DNA of 64,000 nucleotides. Source: a virus. A model generated the notes under the pieces. That model had not been told where the DNA came from. It saw only the letters and a program-made list of their open reading frames with translations, and did no database searches. The stretch lies in IMG/VR virus record IMGVR_UViG_3300046816_000434; one strand, 5' to 3'. Positions 1 through 64,000 of the stretch are shown here, piece by piece. Numbering within the stretch: position 1 is the first letter of the stretch; every line of letters begins with the position of its first letter. The position numbers and the translations under genes were made by a program.

Positions 1-422
1 CACTGCTTCTGCTGCCCGATGCCCAGCCCAGCCATAGGCACCTCCACCGCGAACCCCCGGCACTTGAGCGCCGGAACCAGAAACTCGCGGTAGTCGCCCC
101 CGGCCAGGACGACCAGCCGTGCGCTTTCGGGAGCACAGTCGCGCAGGCAGCTTGCGGTGATGCGGCTCCAGGTCTGCCGCCGCACCCGGTCGTCCGGGTC
201 GGTCGGGTCGTCCTTCCTCCAGGTGAAGTCGTACGGCTCCACGATGCGGTCGGGGCGCATGATGCCATGCAGTGCGCTCAGGATGAACCAAGGGCGTCCG
301 GTGGCCTCGACGTAGGCTCTGGCCTTACTGAACCAGTCGGAGACGTACAGCATCCTGGCTGGCTGCGCTGTGGTCGCCTTCCCGGCGACGCAGGACACGA
401 GGAATACGCGGTTGTCTGCCAT
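1..422 (-). CDS. DUF6884-family protein, 3' end truncated by window edge
   Basis: Manual translation from ATG at 422: MADNRVFLVSCVAGKATTAQPARMLYVSDWFSKARAYVEATGRPWFILSALHGIMRPDRIVEPYD...LAGGDYREFL...VEVPMAGLGIGQQKQ. It matches the LVSCxxxK...LYxSxWFxKAR...WFILSAxHG...EPYD pattern. Absent from the ORF track. Confidence 0.75.
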   Translation of the reverse strand, partial: MADNRVFLVSCVAGKATTAQPARMLYVSDWFSKARAYVEATGRPWFILSALHGIMRPDRIVEPYDFTWRKDDPTDPDDRVRRQTWSRITASCLRDCAPESARLVVLAGGDYREFLVPALKCRGFAVEVPMAGLGIGQQKQ

Positions 423-425
423 AGG

Positions 426-674
426 CTAGAAGTTGTGCAGTTTGTGCTCAGGCCAGGACTCAGCGGCAGCGGCGTGAAGTTCTTCCGCCGTGGGTACGGC
501 GATGTTCAGCGTCTTCATGCGCTGGCGTAGCTTCTCAGCGTTCATCCGGTTGAGCGCACTAACCAGATTCTCATCCCAGCCTTCGGCGCGGAGATAGTAA
601 TACTTTGCGCCCTGGATGTAGTCAGAGCGGATCGACGCTGCCGATTCGGTGCTCTTCGTTGTCTGTCGTTTCAT
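426..674 (-). CDS. Hypothetical protein, 82 aa
   Basis: ATG preceded by GAGGAG Shine-Dalgarno; 3-nt gap to the next gene. Confidence 0.7.
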   Translation of the reverse strand: MKRQTTKSTESAASIRSDYIQGAKYYYLRAEGWDENLVSALNRMNAEKLRQRMKTLNIAVPTAEELHAAAAESWPEHKLHNF

Positions 675-736
675 GGTCTCCTCAGTGCCAGATTGACTGG
701 CAGACGGCGGTGCCTCCCGGCGTGGCCGTTTCGACC
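675..736 (-). ncRNA. Type II hammerhead ribozyme HH1
   Basis: Minus strand: GGUC-GAAA-CGGC..GCC-GGGA-GGC..GCCG-UC^UGCCAG-UCAAU-CUGGCA-CUGAGGA-GACC-AUG. Complete core (CUGANGA, GAAA, GUC cleavage triplet) and all three stems pair. Predicted cut between 703 and 702. Confidence 0.9.
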
Positions 737-739
737 TTG

Positions 740-949
740 TCAGGCAGCAGGCAGGTTTGCCGCCCAGTCAATCAGGCACAGCACAACCTTCAGCGCAACG
801 GCGATGAATGCCAGCCCAAAGCAAACGCCAACCGCGCCACAGATCCATTGCAGGATCAGCACCGCCAGAGGGCTAAAGCAGCATGCGACCAGCAGGAGGT
901 GGAAGGCGATAATTCCGGCCCATTCCAGGCGGTTCAGCTTATCGGGCAT
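740..949 (-). CDS. Small membrane protein, two predicted TM segments
   Basis: MPDKLNRLEWAGIIAFHLLLVACC...; hydrophobic and overlapping the upstream stop. Confidence 0.6.
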   Translation of the reverse strand: MPDKLNRLEWAGIIAFHLLLVACCFSPLAVLILQWICGAVGVCFGLAFIAVALKVVLCLIDWAANLPAA

Positions 950-1388
950 GGAACGCCTCCCGGATTGTGTGATTGATGTAGCCGTAGTTCCTGCGCTGGT
1001 CGTCCTGGTCCTGATACCCCTTACCCTGACATTGATGACAGACCCCGCCAAACTGCGGAGGCGCACCGTTGATGCAAGGCCCCCAGCGATACTCGCCAGA
1101 GCACTGGCAGTGGTCGCAGGCGCGGTACTGCAGGTCTGCAACCTCCCGCTTGTCATCGTCGCGCCCTACCGTCCTGACGGGCCAGCCGTTGCCCTGGAGC
1201 CGTGTCGCCGCAAGCTGCCGCGCTACCGCCTGGGCCTCAGCCAGCGTGCAGTGCAGGTACAACCTCCCGTCCGTGGTGAAGCCGTCCAGCACGCGGCGGT
1301 CTACCGTGCGCCAGACCTTGTGGGCGTTCGGGACGTGGACCGTCCAGCGCTGCATGTAGTCGTTCGTCTGTTCGTTCGTGTCGTTCAT
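939..1388 (-). CDS. Phage protein with C-terminal DnaJ-like CxxCxxxG zinc finger
   Basis: CDHCQCSG...CHQCQGKG motifs; ATG at 1388 after a purine-rich GAGAGA. Confidence 0.7.
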   Translation of the reverse strand: MNDTNEQTNDYMQRWTVHVPNAHKVWRTVDRRVLDGFTTDGRLYLHCTLAEAQAVARQLAATRLQGNGWPVRTVGRDDDKREVADLQYRACDHCQCSGEYRWGPCINGAPPQFGGVCHQCQGKGYQDQDDQRRNYGYINHTIREAFHAR

Positions 1389-1402: not shown

Positions 1403-1461
1403 TGGCCTAGCTCATCAGCGTCACGCGGCCAGTCGTGACAGACGCCTTACGGCGTTTCGCT
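1403..1461 (-). ncRNA. Type II hammerhead ribozyme HH2 with pseudoknot
   Basis: Minus strand: AGC-GAAA-CGCC-GUAA-GGCG-UC^UGUCACG-ACUGGCCG-CGUGACG-CUGAUGA-GCU-A-GGCCA. Canonical CUGAUGA core; loop I UGGCC pairs with the 3' GGCCA. Predicted cut between 1441 and 1440. Confidence 0.92.
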
Positions 1462-19026: not shown

Positions 19027-20874
19027 GTGCCTCCCCGCAAATCTGAACCCGTGCGCGCCGCTTTCGCGCGCCAGGACGATCCTATCCCGCCCGGTGTCAA
19101 CGTTCTGTTCCGTCCGCATCCTGGGCCACAGACCGAAGCGCTGTTGTTGGAAGAGGATGAGATCTGCGCAGGCGGTGCCAAGGGCGGCGGCAAGACCCAG
19201 TTGGGCATCGCCTGGCTGATGAAAGGCAATCCGTATCATCCGCCAGAGCGTGAGTTGCCGTGGGATATCACTTACCTGAACCATCGTCATTACCGTGCTC
19301 TGGTTCTGCGTAAAAACGTCATCGACTTAGGCGACTGGATCGACAAGGCGCGGCGCATGTATGAGCCGTTCGGCGGCGTCTTCCGCGAGCGCCCTTCTCC
19401 GCTCTTTGAATTCCGGACCGGCGCCAAGATCGTGCTTGGGCACTTAGACGACGCGGACACTTATACCAAGTATCAGGGCCAGGAATACCAGCGCTTCTTA
19501 TTGGAAGAGGCAACCTTGGTCCCTGATCTCAAGAGTTATCTGATGGTGCGTTCCTGCATCCGCAGCACTGATGCCGACTTACATTGTCAGACCTTACTCA
19601 CATGCAACCCTGGAGGTTGCGGGCATCAGTGGGTACGCGACCGCTTCATCAAACCCAAAGACAAAGACGGCCGCATCATTCCGCCTAACACGCGGATTGT
19701 CGATCCTCTGACTGGTGAGACGCGGATTTTCCTTCCAATGAAACTCAAGGACAATCCTTCCTTGGCCTGTGATCCCAGCTACGTGAAGAAGTTGATGGGC
19801 TTGCCGGAAGCGGAGAGGCGTGCGTTCTTAGATGGTGATTGGGATAGTTTAAGTGGCATTTTTTTCAGCGAATTCAGACCTTTGGGTCCTTTAACCGGCG
19901 ATCCCGAAGAAGCCTGTCATGTGATCCCAGCCAAACCGCTCAAGCCGTGGCTGAACCGCCTGATCGGCATGGACTGGGGCTTTGCGCACGAGGGCGCCGC
20001 GTACTGGGGCTGCGACAACGACGACGGCCGCTTCCATGTCTATCGCGAGCTGGTGCGCTCACGCCTGGGCGCGGAGGCGTGGGGCGTGGAGATTGCGCTG
20101 GCTTCCATGGAGGACCTGAAGGGCCTGGAGCAAAACACCATGACCCTGTATCTGTCGCCCGACGCCTGGGAGAAGCGCTCCGATACGCGCACCATCGCGG
20201 ACCAGATCGCGGCCGGCATCCGCCGTGTCTTAGGTCCCAACAGTGTCTTGTTGACGGAAGAAGAGACCGGCGACCCTGACGAGGTGGAGCGCATGCGGCG
20301 GCAGCAGCGCTACGGCATCATGGTGCGCCGCGCGCCCAACCAGCGTGTCGCCGGGGCGCAGTACATCCGTTCGCAACTGCGCTGGTGGCCGCTCACCAAA
20401 GTGGCGAAGGAGTCTTTCAGCCACGAGCTGTTCCTGCGCCTGCTGCGCGCCGATCCCTCGCGCGCCATGGAATACAAGGACGCCTTTGAGAGCCGCCAGA
20501 ACCAGGAGGTTCTGCCTGGCCTTCTGATCCATGATTCCTGCCCGCGCATCATCGAGGTCCTGCAGAACGTGGTGCACTCTCTCACCAACCCGGAGGACGT
20601 GGAGAAGCGCGATGGCGACGACCCCTACGACGGTTTCCGCTACCTGGTCTTCGCCCACTCCAAGGAGAAGCGCCGCGAGCCGTTTGAGGAACACTTCGCC
20701 CGGCGGCTGGAGCAGGTTGCGGCCATGCATGGCGGCATGCTGGACGGCAACACGCGCGTCCAGGTCGCGCGCAAGGCGGAAGAGGACTACAACCAGGCGT
20801 CTGAGGCGATAAGCGCTCCGGTCCACTTCCCGCGCCTCGCCTCGCGCCGCGCCAAGGAAGGCTGGAGGAACTGA
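19027..20874 (+). CDS. terL: Terminase large subunit
   Basis: Walker A GGAKGGGKT, YQGQEY..LLEEAT Walker B, TCNPGG coupling motif, nuclease GMDWGFAH and DDPYDGFRY. Confidence 0.95.
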   Translation: MPPRKSEPVRAAFARQDDPIPPGVNVLFRPHPGPQTEALLLEEDEICAGGAKGGGKTQLGIAWLMKGNPYHPPERELPWDITYLNHRHYRALVLRKNVIDLGDWIDKARRMYEPFGGVFRERPSPLFEFRTGAKIVLGHLDDADTYTKYQGQEYQRFLLEEATLVPDLKSYLMVRSCIRSTDADLHCQTLLTCNPGGCGHQWVRDRFIKPKDKDGRIIPPNTRIVDPLTGETRIFLPMKLKDNPSLACDPSYVKKLMGLPEAERRAFLDGDWDSLSGIFFSEFRPLGPLTGDPEEACHVIPAKPLKPWLNRLIGMDWGFAHEGAAYWGCDNDDGRFHVYRELVRSRLGAEAWGVEIALASMEDLKGLEQNTMTLYLSPDAWEKRSDTRTIADQIAAGIRRVLGPNSVLLTEEETGDPDEVERMRRQQRYGIMVRRAPNQRVAGAQYIRSQLRWWPLTKVAKESFSHELFLRLLRADPSRAMEYKDAFESRQNQEVLPGLLIHDSCPRIIEVLQNVVHSLTNPEDVEKRDGDDPYDGFRYLVFAHSKEKRREPFEEHFARRLEQVAAMHGGMLDGNTRVQVARKAEEDYNQASEAISAPVHFPRLASRRAKEGWRN

Positions 20875-39919: not shown

Positions 39920-41818
39920 ATGGGCGGCTATTACGTGCCTAACATCCAGCGGCCTGGTTTCGGCTATCAGCGCCGCAGCGAGGATGACGAAGACGAATTC
40001 GATGGCTCTGGCTTTGGTGATCCCGGCGACTGGGGCGGCAGTGCAGGCACGCCTGCGTCTGACGGGCCGGATGCATCGGGCGCGACCGGCGGCTATTCTC
40101 CGTTGGCTGCAAATTCGCCCGCGCAAGGCATGCAGAGCATGTCCGCTCCTGCTCCCGCCGTCCAGAATCCGGATTGGCTGAGCGGGATGGATTGGACGGG
40201 CTCTTCGCAACAAGACAACCCGCCGATACCGTACGCATCTCCCTCGCGCGGCGGGGCGGACACGGCGCCTACCGAAACGGAGGCGAATCTGTCCCGGCCG
40301 GCTGGACCGGAAGGCCGTTATCTTCCCGAGCCTCCCGAGCCGCAGGACGCTGAGACAACTCCCACCAGCACTGGCATACCCGGTATAGGCCAGCCGCCCA
40401 TGGGGAGGCCTTCCAAGGTTCCTCCGCCGGTCTCTTCCCACGCCGAACAGGAAAAGCTCAAACAGATGATCAAGGCGGGACCGAAGCGCAGCGTCCTGGG
40501 CACGATTCTGGCGGGAGCGGCGGGATTTGGCGCGGGCTACGTGAATGCGGCAAGCCGCACGCGGAACCCGGTTCCGGTTCCGCAACAGGCGATGCGCAAC
40601 CTGACCTGGCGTGCGCCCGGCGGCGGAGCGTGGGACACCAAGCTTGCGCGGCAGAAGGAGCTGGCGGAGCAGGAGCAAGGCGAGGAGAAGCGCGCACTGA
40701 GCGCACAGCAGATCCAGGCGCAGGCGGAGGAACGTCAGGCGCAGGCGAAGGAGATTGCGCAGCGCGGCGACTATCTGAGTCAGATCGCGAAGACGGGAGC
40801 TAAGGCGGAGGAGGACCGGCAGAAACAGCAGCAGTTGCAGCGCATCACTCAGATGGGTGGAAGAACGCCGCAGATCCGCTACTACCCGGCGGACAATCCT
40901 CCCGCCGAGGTGGCAAATTCCAGTGACTGGTATGTGAAGCCCGATCCTTACGATCCGCATTCTATGATTGCGGTGCGTCCTGATCCAGGCCAGAAGATCG
41001 ATGACGAGACGGCCGACCTTCTGGGCATTGCGCGTGGTTCTACTGTCTCTCCGTCTACTCTTAATGCGGCAACGCGAGCGAAGATATCGGCGGTGAACGC
41101 GGCTCAAGCCTCTTCCGACAGGGAACTGGAGAGGTTGCGCAGGGAAGCGGCCGACAAGAACACGGTCAGGCATCAGACCGAAATGGAAGGCATAGCCGCC
41201 GGGGGTGCAGCGGATCGGACGGAGGCGAGGGAGCAGCGGCGTACGGATGCGCAGAACAAGGCGCTGCAGGGCGCGGAAGACTCAAAAAAGAACTTACTGA
41301 TTGGGGCAGAGAGATGGGGTGACAACGAGCGCAATAAGGTGCGAACGTCGTTGGGTTACATTTCTGACGCTGAAGAGGCGCGCATCAAGAAGGCAGTGCT
41401 CGCGCAAAAGCAGGCTGCATATAACAGCTACGCAGCAGCCAGCCGGCAATATGGCGGCGCAGCGTATGATGTGAAGCTCGATGAAAACGGCGATCCGATC
41501 CCGATCACGGAAGGGTATCTGAAGGGGCAGAAGCCGACTTACCTTCCTGGCGAAACCGCACCGACACCGACGGCACCAGCCGCTACTCCCGCTCGCGCGC
41601 CCACGGGCGGCGGCAGAGGCGGACGCGGAAACGTGCCGCCTCCAGTGAACACGAGCGCGCAGACGCAGGTTCCGCCTGCTGAAAAGGCCCCTCCCACAGC
41701 GCCGCAGGGCGAAGGGGTGACCGTCCCCATTCCCAACAATCCAAGCAAAAGTATGCACTTTGCCAGCAGGGAAGCGGCCGTGAAGTTCTTTAAAGACCGT
41801 GGCTACGATCTCAAATAA
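39920..41818 (+). CDS. Internal virion/DNA ejection protein, putative
   Basis: AAGGAGG SD; Gly-rich amphipathic segment LGTILAGAAGFGAGYV followed by long coiled coils. Confidence 0.7.
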   Translation: MGGYYVPNIQRPGFGYQRRSEDDEDEFDGSGFGDPGDWGGSAGTPASDGPDASGATGGYSPLAANSPAQGMQSMSAPAPAVQNPDWLSGMDWTGSSQQDNPPIPYASPSRGGADTAPTETEANLSRPAGPEGRYLPEPPEPQDAETTPTSTGIPGIGQPPMGRPSKVPPPVSSHAEQEKLKQMIKAGPKRSVLGTILAGAAGFGAGYVNAASRTRNPVPVPQQAMRNLTWRAPGGGAWDTKLARQKELAEQEQGEEKRALSAQQIQAQAEERQAQAKEIAQRGDYLSQIAKTGAKAEEDRQKQQQLQRITQMGGRTPQIRYYPADNPPAEVANSSDWYVKPDPYDPHSMIAVRPDPGQKIDDETADLLGIARGSTVSPSTLNAATRAKISAVNAAQASSDRELERLRREAADKNTVRHQTEMEGIAAGGAADRTEAREQRRTDAQNKALQGAEDSKKNLLIGAERWGDNERNKVRTSLGYISDAEEARIKKAVLAQKQAAYNSYAAASRQYGGAAYDVKLDENGDPIPITEGYLKGQKPTYLPGETAPTPTAPAATPARAPTGGGRGGRGNVPPPVNTSAQTQVPPAEKAPPTAPQGEGVTVPIPNNPSKSMHFASREAAVKFFKDRGYDLK

Positions 41819-44800
41819 TGCCCGACGTTCTTGAACCTGAAGTAGCCGATCCTACTACCGACCCCGATACAATCGACTGGGAGCAGGAAGCCAAACAGGC
41901 TGGTGCGGCTGTTATCCCGACACCCCAACCCCCTAAGCCGCCGGTTGATGATTGGGAGGCGGAAGCGAAGAGTGCCGGGATAAGCGTCACCCCGACGCCC
42001 AAGCGTCAGGCGCAGCCTGCGCAACCCGCGCGCGCTATCGACTGGGAAGCGGAAGCCAAACAGGCGGGAGCGACCATCCAGGATAATGTTTACGCCGGTC
42101 CCCAGATTGGCTTTGAGATCCCTCCGCACCAGTTAGATCTGGGCCGCAGGATACCGGCGGGCCTGGCTCCTCAGGCTCCTGCTACGCCTGCACCCGCTGT
42201 TCCGCCGCCGGTTGCCGTTCCACAACCGACCGTCTACGGCGGGCCGCAGCTTGGTCCGATCACGCCGCCGCCTGCGCCAGCACAAATCACGCCTGTTCCG
42301 CTTGAGCCTGGCCTTCAACGCCCGGCGCCTGCTCCTCAGTTGCCAACGGGTGCCGGCGGTATTGCGCAGGCGGTCAGCAATGTGATGGGCGAGTCGCCGC
42401 GCCTGGATGTGCAGGCAGCTCGCGCCTACGGCCTGCTAACTTCGCCAGGCCAATTCATTGAGCGGCCGGCGAATGACGTGCCAACGGCGGATCACATCGT
42501 GTATGCGATTCGCCAGATGGCGGCGAACCAGGCTTCGCCCGTAGAAGTCGGCAAGATGCTGGCGTTCGGCTTGGGCGGCAAAGGAATCGGTCTCCTGCAG
42601 AAGGGACTCGCTAATTCCGGAATGCTGGCTTCGCTACCTGGCTTGAGCAAGGCGCTTGACGTTGCTTCGCGCGCCGCGATCCCTGGCTATATCGTTGGCA
42701 GCGGTAGCAAGAATGTCTATGAGCAGGCGCAGGCAGCTCAAGCAGCGAAGGAGCGCGGAGATACCGGCGCCGAGGTGGAAGCGCGGACGCAGGAAGTGGT
42801 CAGTGCGTTGATGGCGTTGGCGGGTGCGTATGGCGTCCGCCAGGCCTGGCAGGTCAAGGGCGCGTATCCGCCTTCTCCGACCGCCGCCGAGAAGGCGACA
42901 GCCGAGAAGATAGGCGGCATTGCTACTCCCAAGGTCTCATCCGAAGCCGCAGGCGCGATTGCAGAGCGGCTGCGCCAGCAGGGTGCTCCATTGGCGGCGC
43001 AGGCATGGGAGCAGCTCGACCGTAGCCGTCCGGTTGAGCTGAATATTGGGGGCAGGAAGGCCTACCTCACGGATACCTGGACCGGAGGGCGTCCGGGCGT
43101 GGGGAACATGATCCAGTATGTCTTCGATGAAGACGGCGATGTACTGACGGGCGGTTCGCCGGATGCCGTGAAGGGCTGGCTCGATCAGCAGACCAGCACA
43201 CGGCGAGGCATGCGATCCGGTACTGCTGCTGCCGGTGTTCCGGGCGTTACTTATGAGCCCGCGTTAGAACAGGGCGAGGCACTCACTGGGACCAGGCCGG
43301 CTCCTCCTGGGACTGGCGCGTCCATCCCCCCACGGGTTGGTTCTCAGGTTCCAGGAGAAGGAGTGCCGCCTGGCGAAGGCGGCGGGGCACCTTCCGGTCC
43401 TGACGTTCCCGACGTTCCCGACGTTCCTGGCACATCCGTAGTCCCTCCGTCCGTTGGCGTTCCGTCCATGGACCCGCAGTTGCGTGACCAACTGCATGAG
43501 ATGAGCGCGGAAGACATTGCGCGGTACAACAGTCCAGACATCAACACGATGTTGCGCATGCTGGGCCTTCCCCTGACCGGCAATAAGCTGGACCGTGCCA
43601 CGGCCATCAAGGAAGCAATCGCCAGGCAGCAGGCTGGTGAAGTGGCACCAGCGTCCGTAGGGGCGGAGCCGGAAGGCCCTCCCGAGCCGAAAGCGGAAGT
43701 CACTTCCGGCGGGCCGCAGGCGCCTGAGGAGGATGTCAGTGGTGGCCGCAATGCGGTGACACTCGATCCCGCCAAGATGGACGAGGAGACGTTCGATCAA
43801 TACGTGCGTCTTCGCGAGCTGCTTAAGAACGCCGGCAACCTGGGCTTTGAGAGAATCGGAGATGCGGTCAAAGCCATTCTGACGCACCAGGACTGGGCAA
43901 CCCGCTGGGACGTGGGAGGGGGACCCGATGGCGCGGAGCTAATCCGGCTGGGCAACAAGTTTGGCGGCTGGCAAGAGCAATTGCCTGCGCCTGCCCAGAA
44001 CGCGCTGCCTCCGCCGGTTGGTACAATAGGCCCCTATGGGCGACCCGTCAGATCTGAGGAACCAGAAGGAAAGGTGGGAGAAGCAGCAGCGGCTCCGGAG
44101 GAATCTCGACCGCTGGGCGGGGTTGGTGGAGGGGAAAGCTGGCGACAAACCAGCATCATCATCCCCGGAGCCGACGAAGAGCTTGGAGCCCAATACAGAC
44201 TTGCCGAGTTAAAGGACGTATTCCCCTCCCACCATCCCTTCAGCCTTCAGGCGCAGCCCGAACACCCGTGGGGCAATGAGCGCAATTACAACACGCCGGA
44301 AGGCAGGGCGCGTCTCTATAAGCAGGCGACCAGATTCAAGCACCGCCTGATGGTCACCGACAACGCGGACAACGTCAACGGTCCGTCCGTGGTCGCGCGC
44401 AATCCCGCGAATCCCAACGATCCGAGGCTCTACGTGCTGGGCGGCAACAGCCGCATCATGACCATCCACCGCGTGGCGGCGGACCACCCGGAGGCGTACC
44501 GCGCCTACGTGCAGTACCTCGCGGACCGCGCGCCGTTGTACGGCTACACGCGCGAGCAGGTGCTGGGCATGGAGAACCCGGTTCTGGTGCGCGAGCTGGA
44601 TCAGACCGAGATTCCAAAGTACCGCCAGATCATCAGCGACCTGAACAAGACCGGGACCGCCGCGCTCGATCCGTTTGAGCAGGCGATCAGCGATTCGCAG
44701 CGCGTCAGCCAGGACACGCTCGACCACATCCACTACGCCATCGAGAAGCTGGGGTCGAAGGGCACGCTCGCCAAGGCCCTTGAGGGCGCCCTGGGTCCTG

Positions 44801-47800
44801 AGATCGTGCAGAACCTGGTTAAAGACGGATTGATCACCGAAAGCGGGCGTCCTGCTTATCTGGACCCACGGTCGCAGAAGGTGACCGCAGAGGGCAAGGC
44901 GCGCATCTTGCGTCTCATGCTGGGGCGCTTCTTTGACTCTGTGCCGCAGATGTTGAGCACCAACCCGATCTACCAGGCTCGCCTGGAACGCATGGCGGCG
45001 CCACTGGTGCGCCTGGAGGGCAGGCCCGACTGGGATGTCCTGAACGCGCCGATCCGCGAGGCGCTGGAAATCCTGTACCAGTCGGAGATCCGGGACATGC
45101 CGGTCCTGGAGGATCTGAACGCACAGGAAGACATGTATGAGGGGAGCAAGTACAGCCCGGAGGGCATTGCCTGGGCGTACGTTCTCCGGAGCAATGGTGC
45201 CGACCGGCTGGGCACCGCAGCCAGGCAGTATCTGGAGATGGAGGCCCCGTCGCGTCCCGGCCAGGACGTGGACATGTTCGCGCCGCCGCCGGTAGACCAG
45301 GCGGAGGCCTTCGCCAAGGCATTCGGTGACCTGAGAACAGGCAAGGGCAAGGGGACCGTAAGCAAGGAGTATCCAAAGCTGGGCGAGCCAGTGGCGCAGC
45401 CCGGAGAGCTGCAATCGCTCAGGCGGCGCGGTCACGGAACGGGAGAGCTGGGGTTTGATCAACCCGCCCGGACCGGGGGAGCAGATAGGCAGGAGTCGTT
45501 CTTTAGCTCAGAGGATGAAGCCGCGTCCCAGGCCCTTGAGGAATCGCGCCAAAAGAAGCTTCTGGGCGAGCGCCTCACTGCGCAGTTTCACTCCGGACAG
45601 GCGGTGCGGCCGGCCGGCCTGAAGCCCGCACAACAGCGTGGCATGTTTGAGGAGGAGGGGCCGGAACAGGGAGGGCTTGACCTTTCTGAAGCGGCGCCCA
45701 CGTCTTCGTATTCGGCCCAGTTCCCTCCATCGCCAGCGCAGAAGGCACCAGAGAAGCGCGGCGCTGCATCCCAGCGCAACATGCGTATCGCGGACCTGGA
45801 ACGCCAGGCGACTCAGATGCGCCTCACGCCTGAGGAGCAGGACGAGCTGACAAACCTGCGGCGGGAGCGGGCGACGCGCATGGCTGAGCGCCGCACCCAG
45901 TTTGAACGGGGACAGGCTCCGCTGTTTGCGGAACAGATCCCGGAGGCTAAGCCAGAGGACTTCATTCGTGCTGATGAAGAAAGGGAGCGGAGCAGGCGGG
46001 AGAGCGACCAGGGCAGCGAGCAAAAGGCGCGCAACTACCGGGAAGCCATTGCCGGGGCCGTGTCGCCGGAACGGCTGGATGAGCTGGACAGAGGGTGGGA
46101 AAGCTTCAAGGGGCCGCATAAACCTGCGTATCACGCGGACTACTGGCTGCAGCACTACCGTGATGTCTTTAAGCGCAACCCGATGGACGTGTACCGTGGA
46201 GGTGAGCCGTGGCCTCTACCTAAGACTGAAGGGGAGGAGCGGGCAAAGCAGGCTGGCCTGACCGAAGAGGAGTACCTGGAGCTGAAGGCTCCGCATGAGG
46301 GCGAGGGAGAGGTACAGGCGCTGCGCCGTGTGCCGCCCGACCAGCTTCCGCCTGTCAGGCGCGGCCTGAACGACGTGCAGGAGATCCTGCATGACCAGGT
46401 GCGGAAGAAGATCAAGGCGGATGCGCCCGATGCGCTTCAGCAACACCGCCTGGTTACGGAGTCGCGCAAGGAAGTCCAGGAGCAGCTCGCTAAGCCTGTG
46501 AGTGGCATTGGCTGGTATGACGCCGATACGCCGCTCGCCAATACCGATCTGACCAAAGCCTTTCCTGAGCTGAAGACGAATCCCGAAAAGCTGGTCCTGC
46601 TCAACGCCATGTCGGCGGTGACCTCTTCCAGCCATGAGGCGGAACGGGAGTCGGAGCAGGCCGCGTACATCTACGAGCAGTACCGCAAGACGGGGCGCAT
46701 CCCGCTTTCCCGTACAAAGGGCACCAAGTGGGTGGGGCAGGGCGCGGCCGTTGGGCTCGATAAGCTGAACCGTCTGTTGCGGCATTTCGGCGGTAAGACT
46801 CCCTTTGCCGGCGAGAAGAAGCTGGCGGATTTCCTCACCACCAAGCAGACTGCAGACAGCATCCGTGCGCTGGGCCGCAAGCTGGGCTATACGGACGGGA
46901 CCATCCGCTCCTGGCTGGAGAAGCGCGACGAGATGCTGGGGGCTGCGGTCCTGGGCGAGAAGATGTCCCGCTATTTCGCGGGCATCATGGGCCTGGACAT
47001 GGACGGGTCGACCGTCGATGTCTGGATGGCGCGCGCGGGTTACCGCCAGCTTGGGCGCCTAGTGAAGGAAGGCGAGCCCAAGGGTCCGGAGGCGCCGCGT
47101 TCGCCGCGCGACCGCCAGCTCTTCATGAAGACGGATGAAACCCTGGCGAAGGAGTTTAGGCTACCTACGCGCGACATCCAGGCGGTACGCTGGTTCTACG
47201 AGAAAGAGCTGTACCGCAGCCTGGGGTTTAACACCGCCGATGGCTGGCGGTCGCACGGTACGCTAAAATACCTGGAAGACAATGGCATTGCAACAGCGTA
47301 CACCCGCAATCGACGTCGCCGAATTGATCTCAGCGCTGCAGAGAATGCAGCTCAAAGCGAAGGCGGAGGGGCGCGACCCGACACTTCGGCAACTCCTGGA
47401 CGAGGCGCACGAGCAACTGCGCAAGGACCAGGCGAAGAGGAAGTAAGCGCCCGGCGTAGACCTACCGGACCGGGCGAGGGGCAGTTCTCGCTTCCCTTCG
47501 ACCAGCCTCACGAGACGGCCATCGAGGACCTGCAGGAAGCGGCTGGCCGTCCGCACATCATCAGCATCGATCCCAATGCTATCCGCCGCCTGACAGACCC
47601 GCCGCGACCGGCTGTTGCAAGTCAGCAGGCGAGCGAGCAGTTCTTTAAGGGGGCCGACTCCTACGTCACCAAGGTGGGCGATGTTCCGGCTGTGTTCATG
47701 AACCAGCCGATGATGGACATTCTGCTGCATGCCAAAGGTACTTGGGCGGTTGACAAGAATGGCTCTCATGTTGGCGGGCTGGCGGTTCCGCCCTCCCAGT

Positions 47801-50800
47801 GGAAAGCCGTTTTACGTACGGAGCTAGCGAGCTGGGCTCGCACCGAGAACGGGACGGCCAACATTTCCGATCCCGCCATCTTAAAGCTTGCCGGTCAGAT
47901 CCGTCAGGCGCTGGGGCTTCCCAGCCTGCAGGACCAGTTACAGAGCGTGGGTGCGCGCGCGATGACGGGGCATGCCGCTTTGCGGCAGATCCAGAGCGAG
48001 TGGGACTCGCCGCGTTTCAATCGTCAGATCATTGTGGCCCAGGTGGGCGACAGCCTTGCGCCGGCCGAAATCAAATCGTTGATCGAGGAAGAATACGACC
48101 ACATCCAGCACTTTGGTTTGCCTGGCGGCATGGCCGCGCTGCCGATTCACATCACCGAAAATTCGCCAGTGGCACGCAAGGCGGTCCAGCACCTGGCGCA
48201 ACTTGGGTATCCCGACCTGCTTGCGCCCGGTGATCCGGGGCGCATGGCGAGCAACGCCATCATGACCAGCGAGGTCATCGTGCGCCTGATGCGCCCTGAG
48301 CGGTGGCAGGAATTGGGCATCTCCCGGCGCGAGGCGCGGGAGCTGGCGCTGCACTACATCACGGGGCTGGCATCGCTGGGTCAGCACGCGGATGTTATCA
48401 TTGAGCAGTTAAACCATGCCCTCCCCAATCAAACCCAAGCACACCTCCCGGCAGGAAGCGAAACCGGCCTTCGACCGTTTGAAGGAGCTGGTGAAATTGG
48501 CGCAAGAGGACCCCCAGGCGCTAGAGAGGGAGATGGACAAGATGTTTCAGACCCCGAAATCCAAGCCCTAGCGCCGGTCCGCAGGGCAGCGGAACGCGCG
48601 GCGACAGCAGCGAAGACCACCAAAGCCGGCCGCGCGCTGGGTATCGGTCCTACCGTTGAGCGCCAGGTTATCCCCTTCATCGACAACCTGGAAAAGGCTA
48701 TCGATCAGATCCTCTACACGGTCAGTCCCAGCAGCCGTGGCCCTTATGCCGAGAAGGCCGCGCTGTCCATGCGCGCGGATGCGGCGCATATGGACCGTGT
48801 AATCAAGCAGGCGAGCACTGCGCTGGAGGAGCTGCGCAAGCCCTTGGGCAAGCTCTCTCAGGCGCAGCAGCGGCGATTCATCATTCGCTCCGAATCCAAC
48901 CGCCCGCAGGTGGATGCCACCCTGCCCAACGGCGAAGTGATTCCGGCGGCGGAGATGAACCGCATCGCGGCCGAATTCAAGAAGGTCAACGACTACATCC
49001 GCGCCGAGGTGGAAGACGCGGACGGCCCGGCGACCCAGCGTATCTGGCGCGAAGTGTATTTCCCGAATTTCTGGAAGGAGACGTCGAACGTCAGGCCAGG
49101 CACTACCGGCATGCCGTCTGGTTTGGGGAAGGCGCCGTTTGCCGGCCCGCGAGGCTTTGAGAAGCGGAAGGTCTTTGATACTTTTGTCGATGGTCTCCGC
49201 GCAGGCTACACGCCGCTCTTTGATAACCCCGTCGACTTCTGGCAGGCCAAGACGCGGGAGATGGCGAAGTTCGCCATGTTCACCCGGCTGAAGGCCGACA
49301 TCGAGCCGCTCGCCAAATTCAAAGGCTTCACTGAGAAGATGCCGGATGGCTACGACAAGGTCAACGACCCCTTCGCCCGAGTCCTGCAGTACAGCAAAAC
49401 CGAAAAGGGATTCATCGCGCGCGGCGACTGGGTGTATCCGCGAGAGGCCGCAAGAATTATCAACAACTACCTGTCGCCCGACCCGAGGCAGACCATGCCG
49501 GTCTGGAAGCTGATCACCGACATCGGCAATCTGTGGCTGCGCTGGAAACTGAGCGGCTTTTATCACTTCGGCGCGACCGCGCTCAACGGCATCTATTCCC
49601 ATGCGGCACTCGCTGCGCGCATGGCTGCGGCCGGCGATATGAAGGGCGCGGCCGAGCATTTAGTGAAAGCTTCGGTCTCTCCGGTTGCGGATGCGATTCG
49701 TGGAGGCCGTCTCAAGCGCGAATTCTTAGACATCAACGGCACGCAGACCGCTGCGTTCCAGGCGCTGGAGGAAGGCGGATTCCGCGCGGGGCAGGACCCG
49801 TTTTTCCAAAGCAACATGCGCCAGCGCGTGAAGGAAATGTGGAAAGCAGGCGAGAGGATCACGCCGATTTTGGCAAGCCCCTTCGCGGCCATTGAGTGGA
49901 TCACCGTGCCCCTGATGGAGCATTACGTCCCGGCGATGAAAATGGCGGCGGCGCACGACCTGGCGCGGTTTGAGCTGGAGCAATACCAGAAGCGCAACGC
50001 GGGGATGATGCCTAACCCGCCGCGCATGCGCAAGATCATGTCCGACGCGGTCGACAGCATCGACAATCGTTTTGGGCAGTTGACCTATTCCAATATCTTC
50101 TGGAACGCCGCGCTGAAAGCCGCCCTGATGAGTGTGATCATGAGCGTGGGCTGGAACCTGGGAACCGTGCGCGAGCTGGGCGGCGGCATCAAGGATATTG
50201 TGAGTGCGGTAGCCAAGGGCGGCGGCGGCATGACCAACCGCATCGCGTATCTTGCCGCGCTGATTGCCCTGCACACGATAGGCGCCGCGATCTACCAGAA
50301 GCTGGCAACCGGGAAGAACCCTTCTTCCGCGAAGGACGTGGTCTACCCTCAGGACGGCGGCGTCGATGAACGCGGCCATCCCACGCGCGTCTCCTTCCCC
50401 GACTACATGAAGGAGCTGTGGAACTGGACTAACGATCCGGTGGGGTCCGCTGTCAACAAGACACACCCCATGCTCAGCTTCCTGCTGAAGTACATCCAGA
50501 ACCGCGACTACTGGGGCAGCAAGATTCACAACCCGGAGGATGACTGGCGCGACCAGCTCAAACAGTTTGGGAGCTACGCCCTGCGTGAGGAGCTGGCGCC
50601 GCTCTCTGTCAGCAATCTGCTGAAGATGAAACAGCGCCAAGGCGAAGACTGGGGCAAGATGCTCACCGAGCAGCCCGGCAAGTCGGTTATGTCGCAGGTG
50701 GGCTTCTCTCCGACTCCCGCCTGGATCGGGCTCACCGATGCCGAGAAGCTGCTCGCGGGATACCAGCGCGAGCGTCAGCCAGTCGGTGGCCGTGACGTGG

Positions 50801-51213
50801 AAGAGGCGCAGCGGACAACAGCGCGTGCCGCGATTACACGCGCGATCCGCCTGGGGCAGGACTCGCAGCCGGCTGTCGAGAACGCGCTGCGTCAGGGACT
50901 GATCACCGGCAAGGACCTGGCGAGACTGCATAAGGCGGCGGCGGTCAGCCCTCTGCAGGCCGGGCTGAATCACGACATGCTGAACCCTGGCGAGGTTCTG
51001 CGCATCTGGGAAGCGGCGAACCCGGATGAGCGCAGGCAGATCCAGGGCCTGGTGAAGCTGCGCCTGGCGCGCATGGCACACAAGCCCAACGTGCACTGGG
51101 AAGACTGGTCGCGTGAGGCGGCGGAGAAGTATTTCGGCATCCAGGCACGGCCGCGTCTCGCGATCCCTCCTGGCTATGGTGTCCTGCCCCCGGCAGTCGG
51201 CGCCAGTCAGTAA
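41818..51213 (+). CDS. Large polyvalent virion protein, 3131 aa
   Basis: N-terminal DWExEAKxAG repeats, SAP-like motif, ddrB-like ParB domain, helical glycosylase-like region and LPD38-like C-terminus. Confidence 0.85.
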   Translation: MPDVLEPEVADPTTDPDTIDWEQEAKQAGAAVIPTPQPPKPPVDDWEAEAKSAGISVTPTPKRQAQPAQPARAIDWEAEAKQAGATIQDNVYAGPQIGFEIPPHQLDLGRRIPAGLAPQAPATPAPAVPPPVAVPQPTVYGGPQLGPITPPPAPAQITPVPLEPGLQRPAPAPQLPTGAGGIAQAVSNVMGESPRLDVQAARAYGLLTSPGQFIERPANDVPTADHIVYAIRQMAANQASPVEVGKMLAFGLGGKGIGLLQKGLANSGMLASLPGLSKALDVASRAAIPGYIVGSGSKNVYEQAQAAQAAKERGDTGAEVEARTQEVVSALMALAGAYGVRQAWQVKGAYPPSPTAAEKATAEKIGGIATPKVSSEAAGAIAERLRQQGAPLAAQAWEQLDRSRPVELNIGGRKAYLTDTWTGGRPGVGNMIQYVFDEDGDVLTGGSPDAVKGWLDQQTSTRRGMRSGTAAAGVPGVTYEPALEQGEALTGTRPAPPGTGASIPPRVGSQVPGEGVPPGEGGGAPSGPDVPDVPDVPGTSVVPPSVGVPSMDPQLRDQLHEMSAEDIARYNSPDINTMLRMLGLPLTGNKLDRATAIKEAIARQQAGEVAPASVGAEPEGPPEPKAEVTSGGPQAPEEDVSGGRNAVTLDPAKMDEETFDQYVRLRELLKNAGNLGFERIGDAVKAILTHQDWATRWDVGGGPDGAELIRLGNKFGGWQEQLPAPAQNALPPPVGTIGPYGRPVRSEEPEGKVGEAAAAPEESRPLGGVGGGESWRQTSIIIPGADEELGAQYRLAELKDVFPSHHPFSLQAQPEHPWGNERNYNTPEGRARLYKQATRFKHRLMVTDNADNVNGPSVVARNPANPNDPRLYVLGGNSRIMTIHRVAADHPEAYRAYVQYLADRAPLYGYTREQVLGMENPVLVRELDQTEIPKYRQIISDLNKTGTAALDPFEQAISDSQRVSQDTLDHIHYAIEKLGSKGTLAKALEGALGPEIVQNLVKDGLITESGRPAYLDPRSQKVTAEGKARILRLMLGRFFDSVPQMLSTNPIYQARLERMAAPLVRLEGRPDWDVLNAPIREALEILYQSEIRDMPVLEDLNAQEDMYEGSKYSPEGIAWAYVLRSNGADRLGTAARQYLEMEAPSRPGQDVDMFAPPPVDQAEAFAKAFGDLRTGKGKGTVSKEYPKLGEPVAQPGELQSLRRRGHGTGELGFDQPARTGGADRQESFFSSEDEAASQALEESRQKKLLGERLTAQFHSGQAVRPAGLKPAQQRGMFEEEGPEQGGLDLSEAAPTSSYSAQFPPSPAQKAPEKRGAASQRNMRIADLERQATQMRLTPEEQDELTNLRRERATRMAERRTQFERGQAPLFAEQIPEAKPEDFIRADEERERSRRESDQGSEQKARNYREAIAGAVSPERLDELDRGWESFKGPHKPAYHADYWLQHYRDVFKRNPMDVYRGGEPWPLPKTEGEERAKQAGLTEEEYLELKAPHEGEGEVQALRRVPPDQLPPVRRGLNDVQEILHDQVRKKIKADAPDALQQHRLVTESRKEVQEQLAKPVSGIGWYDADTPLANTDLTKAFPELKTNPEKLVLLNAMSAVTSSSHEAERESEQAAYIYEQYRKTGRIPLSRTKGTKWVGQGAAVGLDKLNRLLRHFGGKTPFAGEKKLADFLTTKQTADSIRALGRKLGYTDGTIRSWLEKRDEMLGAAVLGEKMSRYFAGIMGLDMDGSTVDVWMARAGYRQLGRLVKEGEPKGPEAPRSPRDRQLFMKTDETLAKEFRLPTRDIQAVRWFYEKELYRSLGFNTADGWRSHGTLKYLEDNGIATAYTRNRRRRIDLSAAENAAQSEGGGARPDTSATPGRGARATAQGPGEEEVSARRRPTGPGEGQFSLPFDQPHETAIEDLQEAAGRPHIISIDPNAIRRLTDPPRPAVASQQASEQFFKGADSYVTKVGDVPAVFMNQPMMDILLHAKGTWAVDKNGSHVGGLAVPPSQWKAVLRTELASWARTENGTANISDPAILKLAGQIRQALGLPSLQDQLQSVGARAMTGHAALRQIQSEWDSPRFNRQIIVAQVGDSLAPAEIKSLIEEEYDHIQHFGLPGGMAALPIHITENSPVARKAVQHLAQLGYPDLLAPGDPGRMASNAIMTSEVIVRLMRPERWQELGISRREARELALHYITGLASLGQHADVIIEQLNHALPNQTQAHLPAGSETGLRPFEGAGEIGARGPPGAREGDGQDVSDPEIQALAPVRRAAERAATAAKTTKAGRALGIGPTVERQVIPFIDNLEKAIDQILYTVSPSSRGPYAEKAALSMRADAAHMDRVIKQASTALEELRKPLGKLSQAQQRRFIIRSESNRPQVDATLPNGEVIPAAEMNRIAAEFKKVNDYIRAEVEDADGPATQRIWREVYFPNFWKETSNVRPGTTGMPSGLGKAPFAGPRGFEKRKVFDTFVDGLRAGYTPLFDNPVDFWQAKTREMAKFAMFTRLKADIEPLAKFKGFTEKMPDGYDKVNDPFARVLQYSKTEKGFIARGDWVYPREAARIINNYLSPDPRQTMPVWKLITDIGNLWLRWKLSGFYHFGATALNGIYSHAALAARMAAAGDMKGAAEHLVKASVSPVADAIRGGRLKREFLDINGTQTAAFQALEEGGFRAGQDPFFQSNMRQRVKEMWKAGERITPILASPFAAIEWITVPLMEHYVPAMKMAAAHDLARFELEQYQKRNAGMMPNPPRMRKIMSDAVDSIDNRFGQLTYSNIFWNAALKAALMSVIMSVGWNLGTVRELGGGIKDIVSAVAKGGGGMTNRIAYLAALIALHTIGAAIYQKLATGKNPSSAKDVVYPQDGGVDERGHPTRVSFPDYMKELWNWTNDPVGSAVNKTHPMLSFLLKYIQNRDYWGSKIHNPEDDWRDQLKQFGSYALREELAPLSVSNLLKMKQRQGEDWGKMLTEQPGKSVMSQVGFSPTPAWIGLTDAEKLLAGYQRERQPVGGRDVEEAQRTTARAAITRAIRLGQDSQPAVENALRQGLITGKDLARLHKAAAVSPLQAGLNHDMLNPGEVLRIWEAANPDERRQIQGLVKLRLARMAHKPNVHWEDWSREAAEKYFGIQARPRLAIPPGYGVLPPAVGASQ

Positions 51214-52774: not shown

Positions 52775-54133
52775 ATGTTATCCATTTTTGTGCGCCACAC
52801 CAGCAAATGTTTGCAGGGTGACGGCACCGCCAAAAACCCCGGCCTCGCCAGCAAGAAACTGTCGCCCGCTGAATTGCGCACCTACCGGCGCTGCCAGTGC
52901 CCGAAGTACTTCACTGGCACCTACGATGGCCGGTGGTATCCACGCACCTCTTGTGACGCCTGCACCTGGGAAGCCGCCGAAAGAGCCGTGGCACGCGTAC
53001 GCAGCTTGCAGGATCTCAATATCACGCCCGCCCAGGCCGCGCCGCCCGCTCCCGGCCCCCCAAGGATTGAGACTCCGCGCGCCACCTTGCTGGTCGATGC
53101 CGTGCGCAGTTGGGTTACGGAGTGCCGCACCGATGGGTTGCGTGGCATGCGGATGTGGGAGCACCTCGGTGAAATTCTCCTCCTGCGCGCCAAGCAGAAG
53201 CATGTCGCCACAGTAGAAGGGATTACCCCGCTCTTTATTAATGAGTGGCGCGCTGCCTGGGCGAACGAACAGTCGCCGCGCAAGAAAACACCTGGCCTCA
53301 TGCCTAACACGCGCAAGTCGCGCCTGCGCCGTTTGAGTCACTTCCTGAACCATTGTGTCCGCATGCAATACATCAAGGAAACCCCCATGCGTCTGATTAA
53401 ACCTGCGGGGCGCCGCAAGCAGAAACGGGTTGCCGGCAGCGCACAGCGTCAGGATGAAGGTATTGCCACTCTGCCGATTGATGAGCGTGGCGATGCCAAC
53501 TACCGTCGCATCATCGCCTACCTTCCCGAATTCTTTGCGCCCAAACGGATTGACGGCCAGGTGATAAGCCGCCGCGCCGCGCTCGGTTCGCGACCTGATA
53601 ATTTCGGTGCCCTGCTGCAGTTGATGTATACCACCGGGCTGCGCGTCAGCGATGCCATCCTCTTTGAGGTTGACGCCGTGTACGACACGGGACACGGCTG
53701 GGGCTCCTACACCACCACACAATATAAAACTGGCGGCAATGTCACCGTGGTCATCGAACCCTGGTTGCTGACCAAACTGCGTTGCCTGCCGTACATTGCC
53801 GCACGTTACCTTTTTTGGGACGGACACCGGGCAATCGACAGATATGAATGCACCCAGGTGGGCGCGTATCTGCGTGAGATCGGCACCAAGCTCGGTATCG
53901 AGAAACTGCACGCGCACCGCTTTCGGGATTCGTTCGCCGTCAACAAGCTGAACGAAGGCTGGAAGATCCAGGATGTCAGTAAGGCGCTTGGGCACAAGAG
54001 TGTCGCCATTACCGAAATGTATTACTCGCCATGGGTACGCTCCCGCGAGGAAGCCCTGATCCATACCTGGATTACCACGCCCATTAAGTTGCCTGCGAAT
54101 GTAATGGAGCCGTCTCAGACCCGGCCCAACTAG
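52775..54133 (+). CDS. int: Tyrosine recombinase/integrase
   Basis: TGLRVSDA (R), HAHRFRDSFA (HxxR), LGHKSVAITEMYY (H/Y), plus N-terminal arm-binding and core-binding domains. Confidence 0.95.
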   Translation: MLSIFVRHTSKCLQGDGTAKNPGLASKKLSPAELRTYRRCQCPKYFTGTYDGRWYPRTSCDACTWEAAERAVARVRSLQDLNITPAQAAPPAPGPPRIETPRATLLVDAVRSWVTECRTDGLRGMRMWEHLGEILLLRAKQKHVATVEGITPLFINEWRAAWANEQSPRKKTPGLMPNTRKSRLRRLSHFLNHCVRMQYIKETPMRLIKPAGRRKQKRVAGSAQRQDEGIATLPIDERGDANYRRIIAYLPEFFAPKRIDGQVISRRAALGSRPDNFGALLQLMYTTGLRVSDAILFEVDAVYDTGHGWGSYTTTQYKTGGNVTVVIEPWLLTKLRCLPYIAARYLFWDGHRAIDRYECTQVGAYLREIGTKLGIEKLHAHRFRDSFAVNKLNEGWKIQDVSKALGHKSVAITEMYYSPWVRSREEALIHTWITTPIKLPANVMEPSQTRPN

Positions 54134-63536: not shown

Positions 63537-63755
63537 TTACTTGGTTTCGGTGATGGTGAAGGTGTGCGGGTCGGTGTCGCCATCGGCCTGCTCCCAGACG
63601 TGAAGCTGGATGCTCTCGGTTGCTCTGTTGTATTCAAACACCCCGGCCTGCTGTCCATTCAGGAGCAGCAGAAAGCCGGGATAGTCCGGGTCGTAATGCT
63701 GCATCACGGTCAGTTTGCCGATGGGCGTAGTCACGTTCAGTTCGCTGTTGCTCAT
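63537..63755 (-). CDS. Hypothetical protein
   Basis: ATG preceded by GAGGAG inside hammerhead HH3. Confidence 0.7.
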   Translation of the reverse strand: MSNSELNVTTPIGKLTVMQHYDPDYPGFLLLLNGQQAGVFEYNRATESIQLHVWEQADGDTDPHTFTITETK

Positions 63756-63807
63756 GGTCTCCTCAGTGCCGGAATTCACCGGACAGACGCCTCGCGGCGT
63801 TTCGACC
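63756..63807 (-). ncRNA. Type II hammerhead ribozyme HH3
   Basis: Minus strand: GGUC-GAAA-CGCC-GCGA-GGCG-UC^UG(U)CCGG-UGAAUU-CCGGCA-CUGAGGA-GACC-AUG. Predicted cut between 63786 and 63785. Confidence 0.88.
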
Positions 63808-63810
63808 TAC

Positions 63811-64000
63811 CTAAACGAGATCCACTCCGATAGTTGCCAGCACCTCCGCTGCCTGCTCGTAGATCCCGTAGGATTCGCCGTCGTTGCAGCCGTCCTCGCA
63901 GATGCCGTCGAAGTCCTCCATGCGTCCGTGCGGGTCGTTGGTGATCACGTTGCGACCATCACAGAAAGGGCAGCGCGCCCCGCACAGAATGGCGCTGGCT
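63811..64000 (-). CDS. Cys-rich protein, 5' end outside window
   Basis: Manual translation ...LCGARCPFCDGRNVITNDPHGRMEDFDGICEDGCNDGESYGIYEQAAEVLATIGVDLV*. Confidence 0.6.
   Translation of the reverse strand, partial: ASAILCGARCPFCDGRNVITNDPHGRMEDFDGICEDGCNDGESYGIYEQAAEVLATIGVDLV

Follow-up and report, generated by a model that had tools for sequence, protein, structure and literature searches.

The DNA analysed here, called the window below, is a stretch of 64,000 nt recorded in IMG/VR as IMGVR_UViG_3300046816_000434. It originates from a tailed, probably temperate phage of a soil metagenome, and codes for a terminase large subunit (19027..20874) and an integrase (52775..54133). In the structural region, an ORF of 3131 aa (41818-51213, plus strand) gave no Pfam match and a weak match to a PHROG of unknown function. 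The window sequence is present in identical form in several soil and rhizosphere DNA runs, which added no variation; the runs listed for it include none of RNA. A near-DNA search of the phage collection detected no related phage. Near the start of the window, the gap between two small minus-strand genes is filled by a type II hammerhead ribozyme, designated HH1. The genes and the parts of HH1 are as follows.

740..949, minus strand: upstream gene, 69 aa, hydrophobic product, stop codon UGA at 742..740
737 and 674, minus strand: conserved A residues flanking HH1
675..736, minus strand: HH1, complete type II hammerhead filling the intergenic gap, identified by core, fold and class-level covariation
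733..736, minus strand: stem II 5' strand, GGUC (positions 11.4-11.1)
729..732, minus strand: core GAAA (G12 A13 A14 A15.1)
704..729, minus strand: stem III hairpin (A15.1 to U16.1) with an internal loop and a GGGA-capped apex
702..703, minus strand: predicted cleavage site between C17 (703) and U1.1 (702), positioned from the motif
686..702, minus strand: stem I hairpin, 6 bp (UGCCAG/CUGGCA) with a 5-nt loop, UCAAU
679..685, minus strand: core strand CUGAGGA (C3-A9), the variable N7 being G681
678..683, minus strand: Shine-Dalgarno (SD) sequence GAGGAG, supported by anti-SD pairing and by comparative association
675..678, minus strand: stem II 3' strand, GACC (positions 10.1-10.4)
672..674, minus strand: AUG start codon of the downstream gene, directly 3' of stem II
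426..674, minus strand: downstream gene, 82 aa, opened by AUG 674, its N-terminus shared by homologues

On the minus strand, HH1 is arranged in the order GGUC-GAAA, stem III, GUC with the predicted cut behind it, stem I and CUGAGGA-GACC, followed by AUG. The conserved core is complete (C3 U4 G5 A6 N7 G8 A9, G12 A13 A14, H17 and the GUC triplet), and both the A15.1-U16.1 (U704) and G10.1-C11.1 pairs are present. The structural scan showed stems I and III to be loop-closed and stem II to be open, which is the type II order, and the three-way junction is the minimum-free-energy fold. A preliminary description of this DNA had noted that HH1 ends CUGAGGA-GACC-AUG with the start codon abutting stem II, in agreement with our reading of 685..672. 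The SD sequence, said there to be made from core nucleotides plus stem II, is composed of G5 A6 G7 G8 A9 and G10.1. A spacer of 3 nt separates its AGGAG from the AUG, the lower limit of the 3-10 nt range of the class. Ribozyme and start region overlap by six nucleotides; the A of AUG 674 itself occupies the position of the conserved A after GACC. By the consensus rule N7 may be any base, and is the sole free core position (Perreault et al. 2011, PMC3088659). That the G at this position creates the SD is borne out by pairing energies calculated with a generic anti-SD, which may not be that of the host: −9.2 kcal/mol for UGAGGAG (G7) and about −3 kcal/mol for U7, C7 and A7. The description was also right in naming the 4-bp stem II as the sole link between the cleavage products, since in the type II topology stem III stays on the 5' product and stem I on the 3' product. 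HH1 is thus confirmed as a hammerhead with an SD-forming core.

The structural scan of the whole window gave two further type II hammerheads, one of each of two designs.

63756..63807, minus strand: HH3, type II hammerhead of the HH1 design CUGAGGA-GACC, found in the structural scan, 16.1 bits in Rfam
63759..63764, minus strand: SD sequence of HH3
63753..63755, minus strand: AUG directly after GACC of HH3
63786, minus strand: C after which HH3 is predicted to be cut
63537..63755, minus strand: gene behind HH3, 72 aa
1404..1461 (1461..1409 in the scan), minus strand: HH2, type II hammerhead of contrasting design, 36.4 bits

HH3 repeats the layout of HH1, including the 3-nt gap between the upstream stop codon and GGUC and the placing of the A of AUG at the conserved position after GACC; no homologues of the 72-aa gene downstream of it were found. 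In contrast, HH2 carries CUGAUGA (U7), has a stem II of 3 bp and shows complementarity between its tail, AGGCC, and GGCC of loop I. A separate ribosome-binding region precedes its start codon, which is found at 1388..1386, about 20 nt further downstream. Both designs, U7 in HH2 and G7 in HH1 and HH3, are therefore found within the same window. Type I and type III hammerheads were not detected in the window by the scan. A weak match to Twister-P5 at 63667-63721 (plus strand, opposite to the coding strand; 16.2 bits, E = 0.36) is most likely due to chance.

The Rfam model Hammerhead_II (RF02276) covers HH1 over its full length with a score of 20.6 bits (E = 0.085, search of 401 bases). The scores of HH1, HH3 and HH2 are all below the Rfam gathering score of 37, and hence no match was obtained in the window at gathering thresholds, the hammerheads emerging only with E-value thresholds. 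The low scores of HH1 and HH3 could be taken to mean that the sequence resembles a hammerhead by chance or through decay, and that the gene initiates in another way. Two features on which the model is built, a short stem III and a pseudoknot tail, are missing in the subclass with stem II GGUC/GACC. The complete core and the presence of all three stems argue against chance or decay, as does the expected number of type II hammerheads per window, 0.003 against the 3 found (structural scan of 300 Markov-1 random windows). A homologous hammerhead, kept at the corresponding junction of locus L383 with compensatory differences in stem III, and a distribution of AUG spacings that fits an SD, both described below, point the same way. 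An inactive ribozyme or an unused SD is thus highly improbable.

Between the upstream gene and HH1, the stop codon UGA is followed by CAA and then by GGUC, leaving 3 nt between stop and stem II. The 82-aa ORF contains no alternative in-frame start before codon 46, and the two homologues of its product (82% and 67% identity) are equal in length and have the N-terminus MKRQ in common, indicating that initiation probably takes place at AUG 674, as the preliminary description had supposed, and not at another codon. The gene calls already existing in the collection begin at AUG 674 for the 82-aa gene and at AUG 63755 for the 72-aa gene. The gap ahead of the 82%-identical homologue is 65 nt, as in the window; no further orthologues of the 82-aa gene were found in the metagenome and viral contigs searched. 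SD-like motifs are also enriched ahead of other ORF starts of the window, for example GGGAGG before AUG 949 and AAGGAG before AUG 63528. The next gene, coding for a DUF6884 protein, starts at AUG 422, 3 nt past the stop UAG (428..426) of the 82-aa gene and without an SD, an arrangement resembling classical translational coupling in an operon that has hammerheads at other junctions.

The neighbours of the hammerheads are small minus-strand genes, including those for DUF6884, DUF6573 and a PAPS-reductase-like protein. In locus L383, the order 82-aa homologue, DUF6884, 62-aa ORF and DUF6573 (L383:1667-3257) corresponds to the start of the window (1-422) joined to its end (63811-64000), and the proteins of the window itself are recorded on a contig of 65,042 bp. 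Both observations suggest that the window ends are neighbours in the genome, which is probably circular or terminally redundant. HH2, HH1 and HH3 would then lie within one early operon of about 2.7 kb.

For the subclass with stem II GGUC/GACC, statistics were taken from 160 unique members (162 copies) among the matches listed (IMG/VR loci L223-L363). Pairs 2-5 of stem I and 3-5 of stem III show all pair types with 96-100% pairing in these 160 members among the matches listed. An A precedes GGUC in 161 of the 162 copies and follows GACC in 123 of them, again among the matches listed, and loop I is usually 5 nt long with the sequence U-NNN-G. No pseudoknot of loops I or III with the flanks was detected in the subclass, the complementarity not exceeding that of shuffled controls; the flanking A residues and the U-NNN-G loop I may instead form a tertiary contact unlike the loop I/tail pseudoknot described in 2011. 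A test for stem II having been lengthened by selection so as to cover the AUG was likewise negative, stem II never masking the start codon in this way in the subclass. A 2-bp extension present in the HH1 fold (C739-G672 and A738-U673) is best read as chance.

The stop codon of the upstream ORF is mostly located within −1 to +5 nt of GGUC, in G7 and non-G7 members alike. Together with a G7 core and an adjacent AUG, this makes the ribozyme the entire intergenic region. Such proximity of the stop codon, 3 nt before stem II at HH1 and −1 to +5 nt in most of the class, could mean that the ribosome controls cleavage: a terminating ribosome, or a 30S subunit captured by the SD, would prevent folding, and the translation status would decide whether the mRNA is cut. 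That the SD and the 3' strand of stem II are the parts of the ribozyme transcribed last is consistent with this idea. Since, however, the stop codon is equally close in copies having the SD outside the ribozyme, the proximity is not specific to the SD-in-core design, and we regard control of cleavage by the ribosome as quite improbable.

For a comparison of core position 7 with the position of the gene start, IMG/VR hammerheads with stem II GGUC/GACC and validated stems I and III were collected, and a start was scored as adjacent when an AUG opening an ORF of at least 40 codons was located 4-12 nt after A9. The count of G7 copies is complete (29 copies at 25 loci), whereas the 133 U7, C7 and A7 copies are those among the matches listed. 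An adjacent AUG was found in 21 of the 29 G7 copies as against 7 of the 133 U/C/A7 copies among the matches listed (Fisher's exact test, odds ratio 47, p = 2.7e-14). In the G7 copies the distance from A9 to AUG ranges from 4 to 11 nt with a mode of 6-7 nt, corresponding to AGGAG spacers of 3-10 nt with a mode of 5-6 nt. The typical distance from A9 to the start in U/C/A7 copies among the matches listed is about 21-23 nt, and of those with the start at least 15 nt downstream, 96 of 113 among the matches listed carry an SD-like motif of their own outside the ribozyme. Of the 7 U/C/A7 copies with an adjacent AUG, most seem to have it in frame by chance, ahead of a later start with an SD of its own.

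This association of G7 with the adjacent AUG supports, indirectly, that the SD in the core is put to use. We conclude that selection has favoured G7 in ribozymes directly adjoined by a gene start, and on comparative grounds we regard the dual use of the core, as ribozyme part and as SD, as established. The evolutionary independence of the G7 copies may be incomplete, though they stand at 25 loci beside different genes. The same tendency is seen outside this set. Of 61 type II hammerheads sampled without bias, 34 have U at N7, 18 have C, 5 have A and 4 have G, and the AUG-adjacent G7 copies of this sample carry other stem II sequences. Six copies validated in cellular MAGs, nearly all of Acidobacteriota, have AUG mostly 5-8 nt after A9. 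Loose matches to the G7 pattern, such as those at Brevibacterium, Achromobacter and Mycobacterium loci, were mostly due to chance and were removed by the stem validation.

The junction orthologous to that of HH1 was found in locus L383, where the 67%-identical 82-aa orthologue is preceded by a hammerhead homologous to HH1. Stem I (UGCCAG/CUGGCA) and the stem III apex (GCC-GGGA-GGC) are common to both, while the base of stem III differs and yet still pairs, the differences being compensatory. The L383 hammerhead has U7, a 3-bp stem II (GGC/GCU) and an enlarged loop I whose GGCC is complementary to the tail, AGGCC; like HH2, it belongs to the pseudoknot subclass. A separate, exposed AAGGA is located 6 nt before the start AUG AAA CGA CAG, which matches the start of the gene behind HH1. 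The two loci together show that the SD-in-core and the exposed-SD designs interconvert at one and the same junction. That the SD-in-core design is accompanied by loss of the pseudoknot tail makes structural sense, because the tail would sit in the place of the start codon. Other relatives, found through the PAPS-reductase-like neighbour (about 50% identity; L364-L382), have neither hammerheads nor orthologous junctions.

Two other gaps of L383 contain hairpins. Past the 62-aa ORF (L383:2336-2420), at the place taken by HH3 in the window, L383 lacks a hammerhead; a GC-rich hairpin, GGGCCGG-GAAAU-CCGGCCC, lies there ahead of an AAAGGA SD, and the gene that follows is an unrelated one. A long hairpin (AGCCGCUCA...UGAGCGGCU) lies in the gap at L383:995-1100. 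Junction elements appear to be swapped like cassettes, as do the genes behind them.

The interconversion of the two designs would also be expected if the overlap were a matter of compaction only, saving about 15-20 nt per junction, with processing and initiation independent of each other and without measurable mutual effect. Hammerheads with and without G7 alike abut the stop codon of the upstream gene, a sign of generally tight packing that fits this explanation, as does the weak occlusion predicted below. The same nucleotides, however, are not able to be in the catalytic core and in an SD:anti-SD helix at the same time, and some interference is unavoidable; furthermore, the coexistence of the HH2 design with that of HH1 and HH3 in one operon indicates that compaction is not uniform. 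Compaction without any functional consequence is therefore a possible explanation that we place short of an even chance.

Solved hammerhead structures show G5, A6, G8 and A9 to take part in the active core and G10.1 to be in a base pair. Since the SD is made of these core residues and of the G10.1 pair, the active fold and the SD:anti-SD helix should be mutually exclusive. From secondary structure only, the cost of opening the region from SD to AUG was predicted to be 1.8 kcal/mol in uncleaved and 0.9 kcal/mol in cleaved HH1, and 4.1 kcal/mol in uncleaved HH3 and 0.9 kcal/mol in its 3' product. The differences between the states before and after cleavage, 0.9 kcal/mol for HH1 and 3.2 kcal/mol for HH3, exclude tertiary energy and may underestimate the occlusion. 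With tertiary energy left aside, the predicted effect of masking on translation is modest, a few-fold at most. For the link between the products through stem II, cofolding gave −5.6 to −5.9 kcal/mol and a predicted Kd of about 1e-4 M, a weak value from which quick separation of the products is expected.

The preliminary description had gone on to propose that cleavage could switch translation on. In the strict form of this proposal, the folded, uncleaved ribozyme blocks initiation, so that downstream translation depends strongly on cleavage as a licence that needs no ligand. The composition of the SD, the position of the AUG against stem II with its A at the conserved flank, the weak link left after cleavage and the opening difference at HH3 are all in agreement with such a gate. 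At HH1, however, the opening difference is only 0.9 kcal/mol; no stem II extension or pseudoknot over the AUG has been selected; the SD is exposed in most members of the class and at the orthologous junction of L383; and a ribosome terminating 3 nt upstream would presumably open stem II in any case. A strong gate on translation by the ribozyme is thus a minority possibility, and its strict form is unlikely. Because self-cleavage is constitutive, the overlap would lead to an ordering of events rather than to a regulated switch, and cleavage followed by translation is the likely order.

The explanation we consider probable is that HH1, and likewise HH3, is a genuine hammerhead whose core is the ribosome-binding site of the next gene, and that cleavage and release, or melting of stem II, precede initiation with a modest effect that is partly a result of compaction. 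The ribozyme takes up all the space between two genes of a phage early operon, and the following gene uses the 3' core strand as its ribosome-binding site. The G at N7 turns CUGANGA-G into an SD pairing well with the anti-SD, and the AUG comes right after the 4-bp stem II. The polycistronic transcript would be cut after C703, and stem III would depart with the upstream message. U702, bearing a 5'-OH, would be the first nucleotide of the downstream message, in which the stem I hairpin would precede SD and AUG in single-stranded form. Because the SD resides in the folded core and in the first stem II pair, 30S binding would be incompatible with the active fold. On most transcripts, initiation would then take place after cleavage and product release, or after a ribosome terminating 3 nt upstream has melted stem II. 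The effect on yield is expected to be modest, and the overlap to reflect genome compaction at least in part. The data show the motif, its recurrence, the link of G7 with an adjacent AUG and the interconversion with the exposed-SD design; cleavage in vivo, the order of the events and the size of any effect are what we infer from them.

Type II hammerheads that occur in clusters and flank single genes in operons of prophages and phages were described in 2011 (Perreault et al. 2011, PMC3088659; RF02276). HH1, HH2 and HH3 share with those clusters the core consensus, the open stem II and the occurrence of several copies per operon among small phage genes, and the presumed cutting of polycistronic mRNA is likewise common to the clusters and to HH1 and HH3. 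Unlike the type described in 2011, HH1 and HH3 have an SD as the 3' strand of the core and an AUG abutting stem II. They also lack the pseudoknot between loop I and the 3' tail, a tertiary contact that speeds cleavage in type II hammerheads, and have instead the 4-bp stem II GGUC/GACC, the flanking A and the U-NNN-G loop I. The terms 'ribosome bind', 'translation' and 'Shine-Dalgarno' do not occur in the text of the 2011 paper (Perreault et al. 2011, PMC3088659). In full-text literature searches, with subscription journals outside their coverage, no natural hammerhead having an SD in its core was found. The SD-in-core layout recurs in phages, and a review in 2019 considered the purpose of bacterial hammerheads unresolved and in need of more work.

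The closest functional analogues are engineered switches based on the Schistosoma hammerhead, which mask the ribosome-binding site in a bacterial 5' UTR (review PMC12192606). In these, the SD is part of the ribozyme structure and is freed by cleavage, and HH1 would act likewise, as their natural counterpart. In the engineered switches, however, the SD is paired in an extended helix under control of an aptamer, whereas in HH1 it is located in the unpaired core plus one base pair, with no evident ligand domain and with weak predicted masking. A viral hammerhead immediately upstream of a start codon is also known from haloviruses HF1 and HF2, where HHphage is located 13 nt upstream of the helicase start and the 5' end of the transcript was mapped to the cleavage site (Perreault et al. 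2011). HHphage differs from HH1 in having an archaeal host and no overlap between ribozyme and start. The arrangement at HH1 has something in common, too, with ordinary coupling, since its ribosome-binding site is structured with sequence near the upstream stop codon and would be opened by the terminating ribosome. Translational coupling, in which a downstream ribosome-binding site is masked by upstream mRNA, is a general mechanism in bacterial operons. Unlike in ordinary coupling, the masking structure at HH1 is a self-cleaving ribozyme, which can remove itself irreversibly.

A hammerhead core that is also an SD physically couples RNA processing to translation initiation. The variable N7 allows the two functions to be separated genetically: G7U would lose the SD and keep the ribozyme consensus, while G12A or C17G would kill the ribozyme and yet keep the SD, by which the question becomes directly testable. 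A kinetic licence, in which early cistrons are translated only after self-cleavage or after an upstream ribosome has just terminated, is somewhat unlikely in our estimation. If it were true, a self-cleaving RNA without ligand would set the order and the ratio of processing and translation in phage early operons, and phage and bacterial hammerheads would gain a defined regulatory function. In genome annotation, CUGAGGAG with an AUG 3-10 nt behind it marks a ribozyme and a gene start together.

The validated genomic copies of CUGAGGA-GACC are almost all found in Acidobacteriota MAGs (Terriglobales, Acidobacteriaceae), at loci L384, L395, L397, L399, L409 and L412. This hints at Acidobacteriota as the host group of such phages, and perhaps of the phage of the window (61% G+C, soil). 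A second, unrelated contig from the same soils (runs X1 and X3) contains a similar stem I, core, GACC and AUG when compared with window positions 670-706; it differs in stem III and in the downstream gene, and represents another natural copy of the HH1 design.
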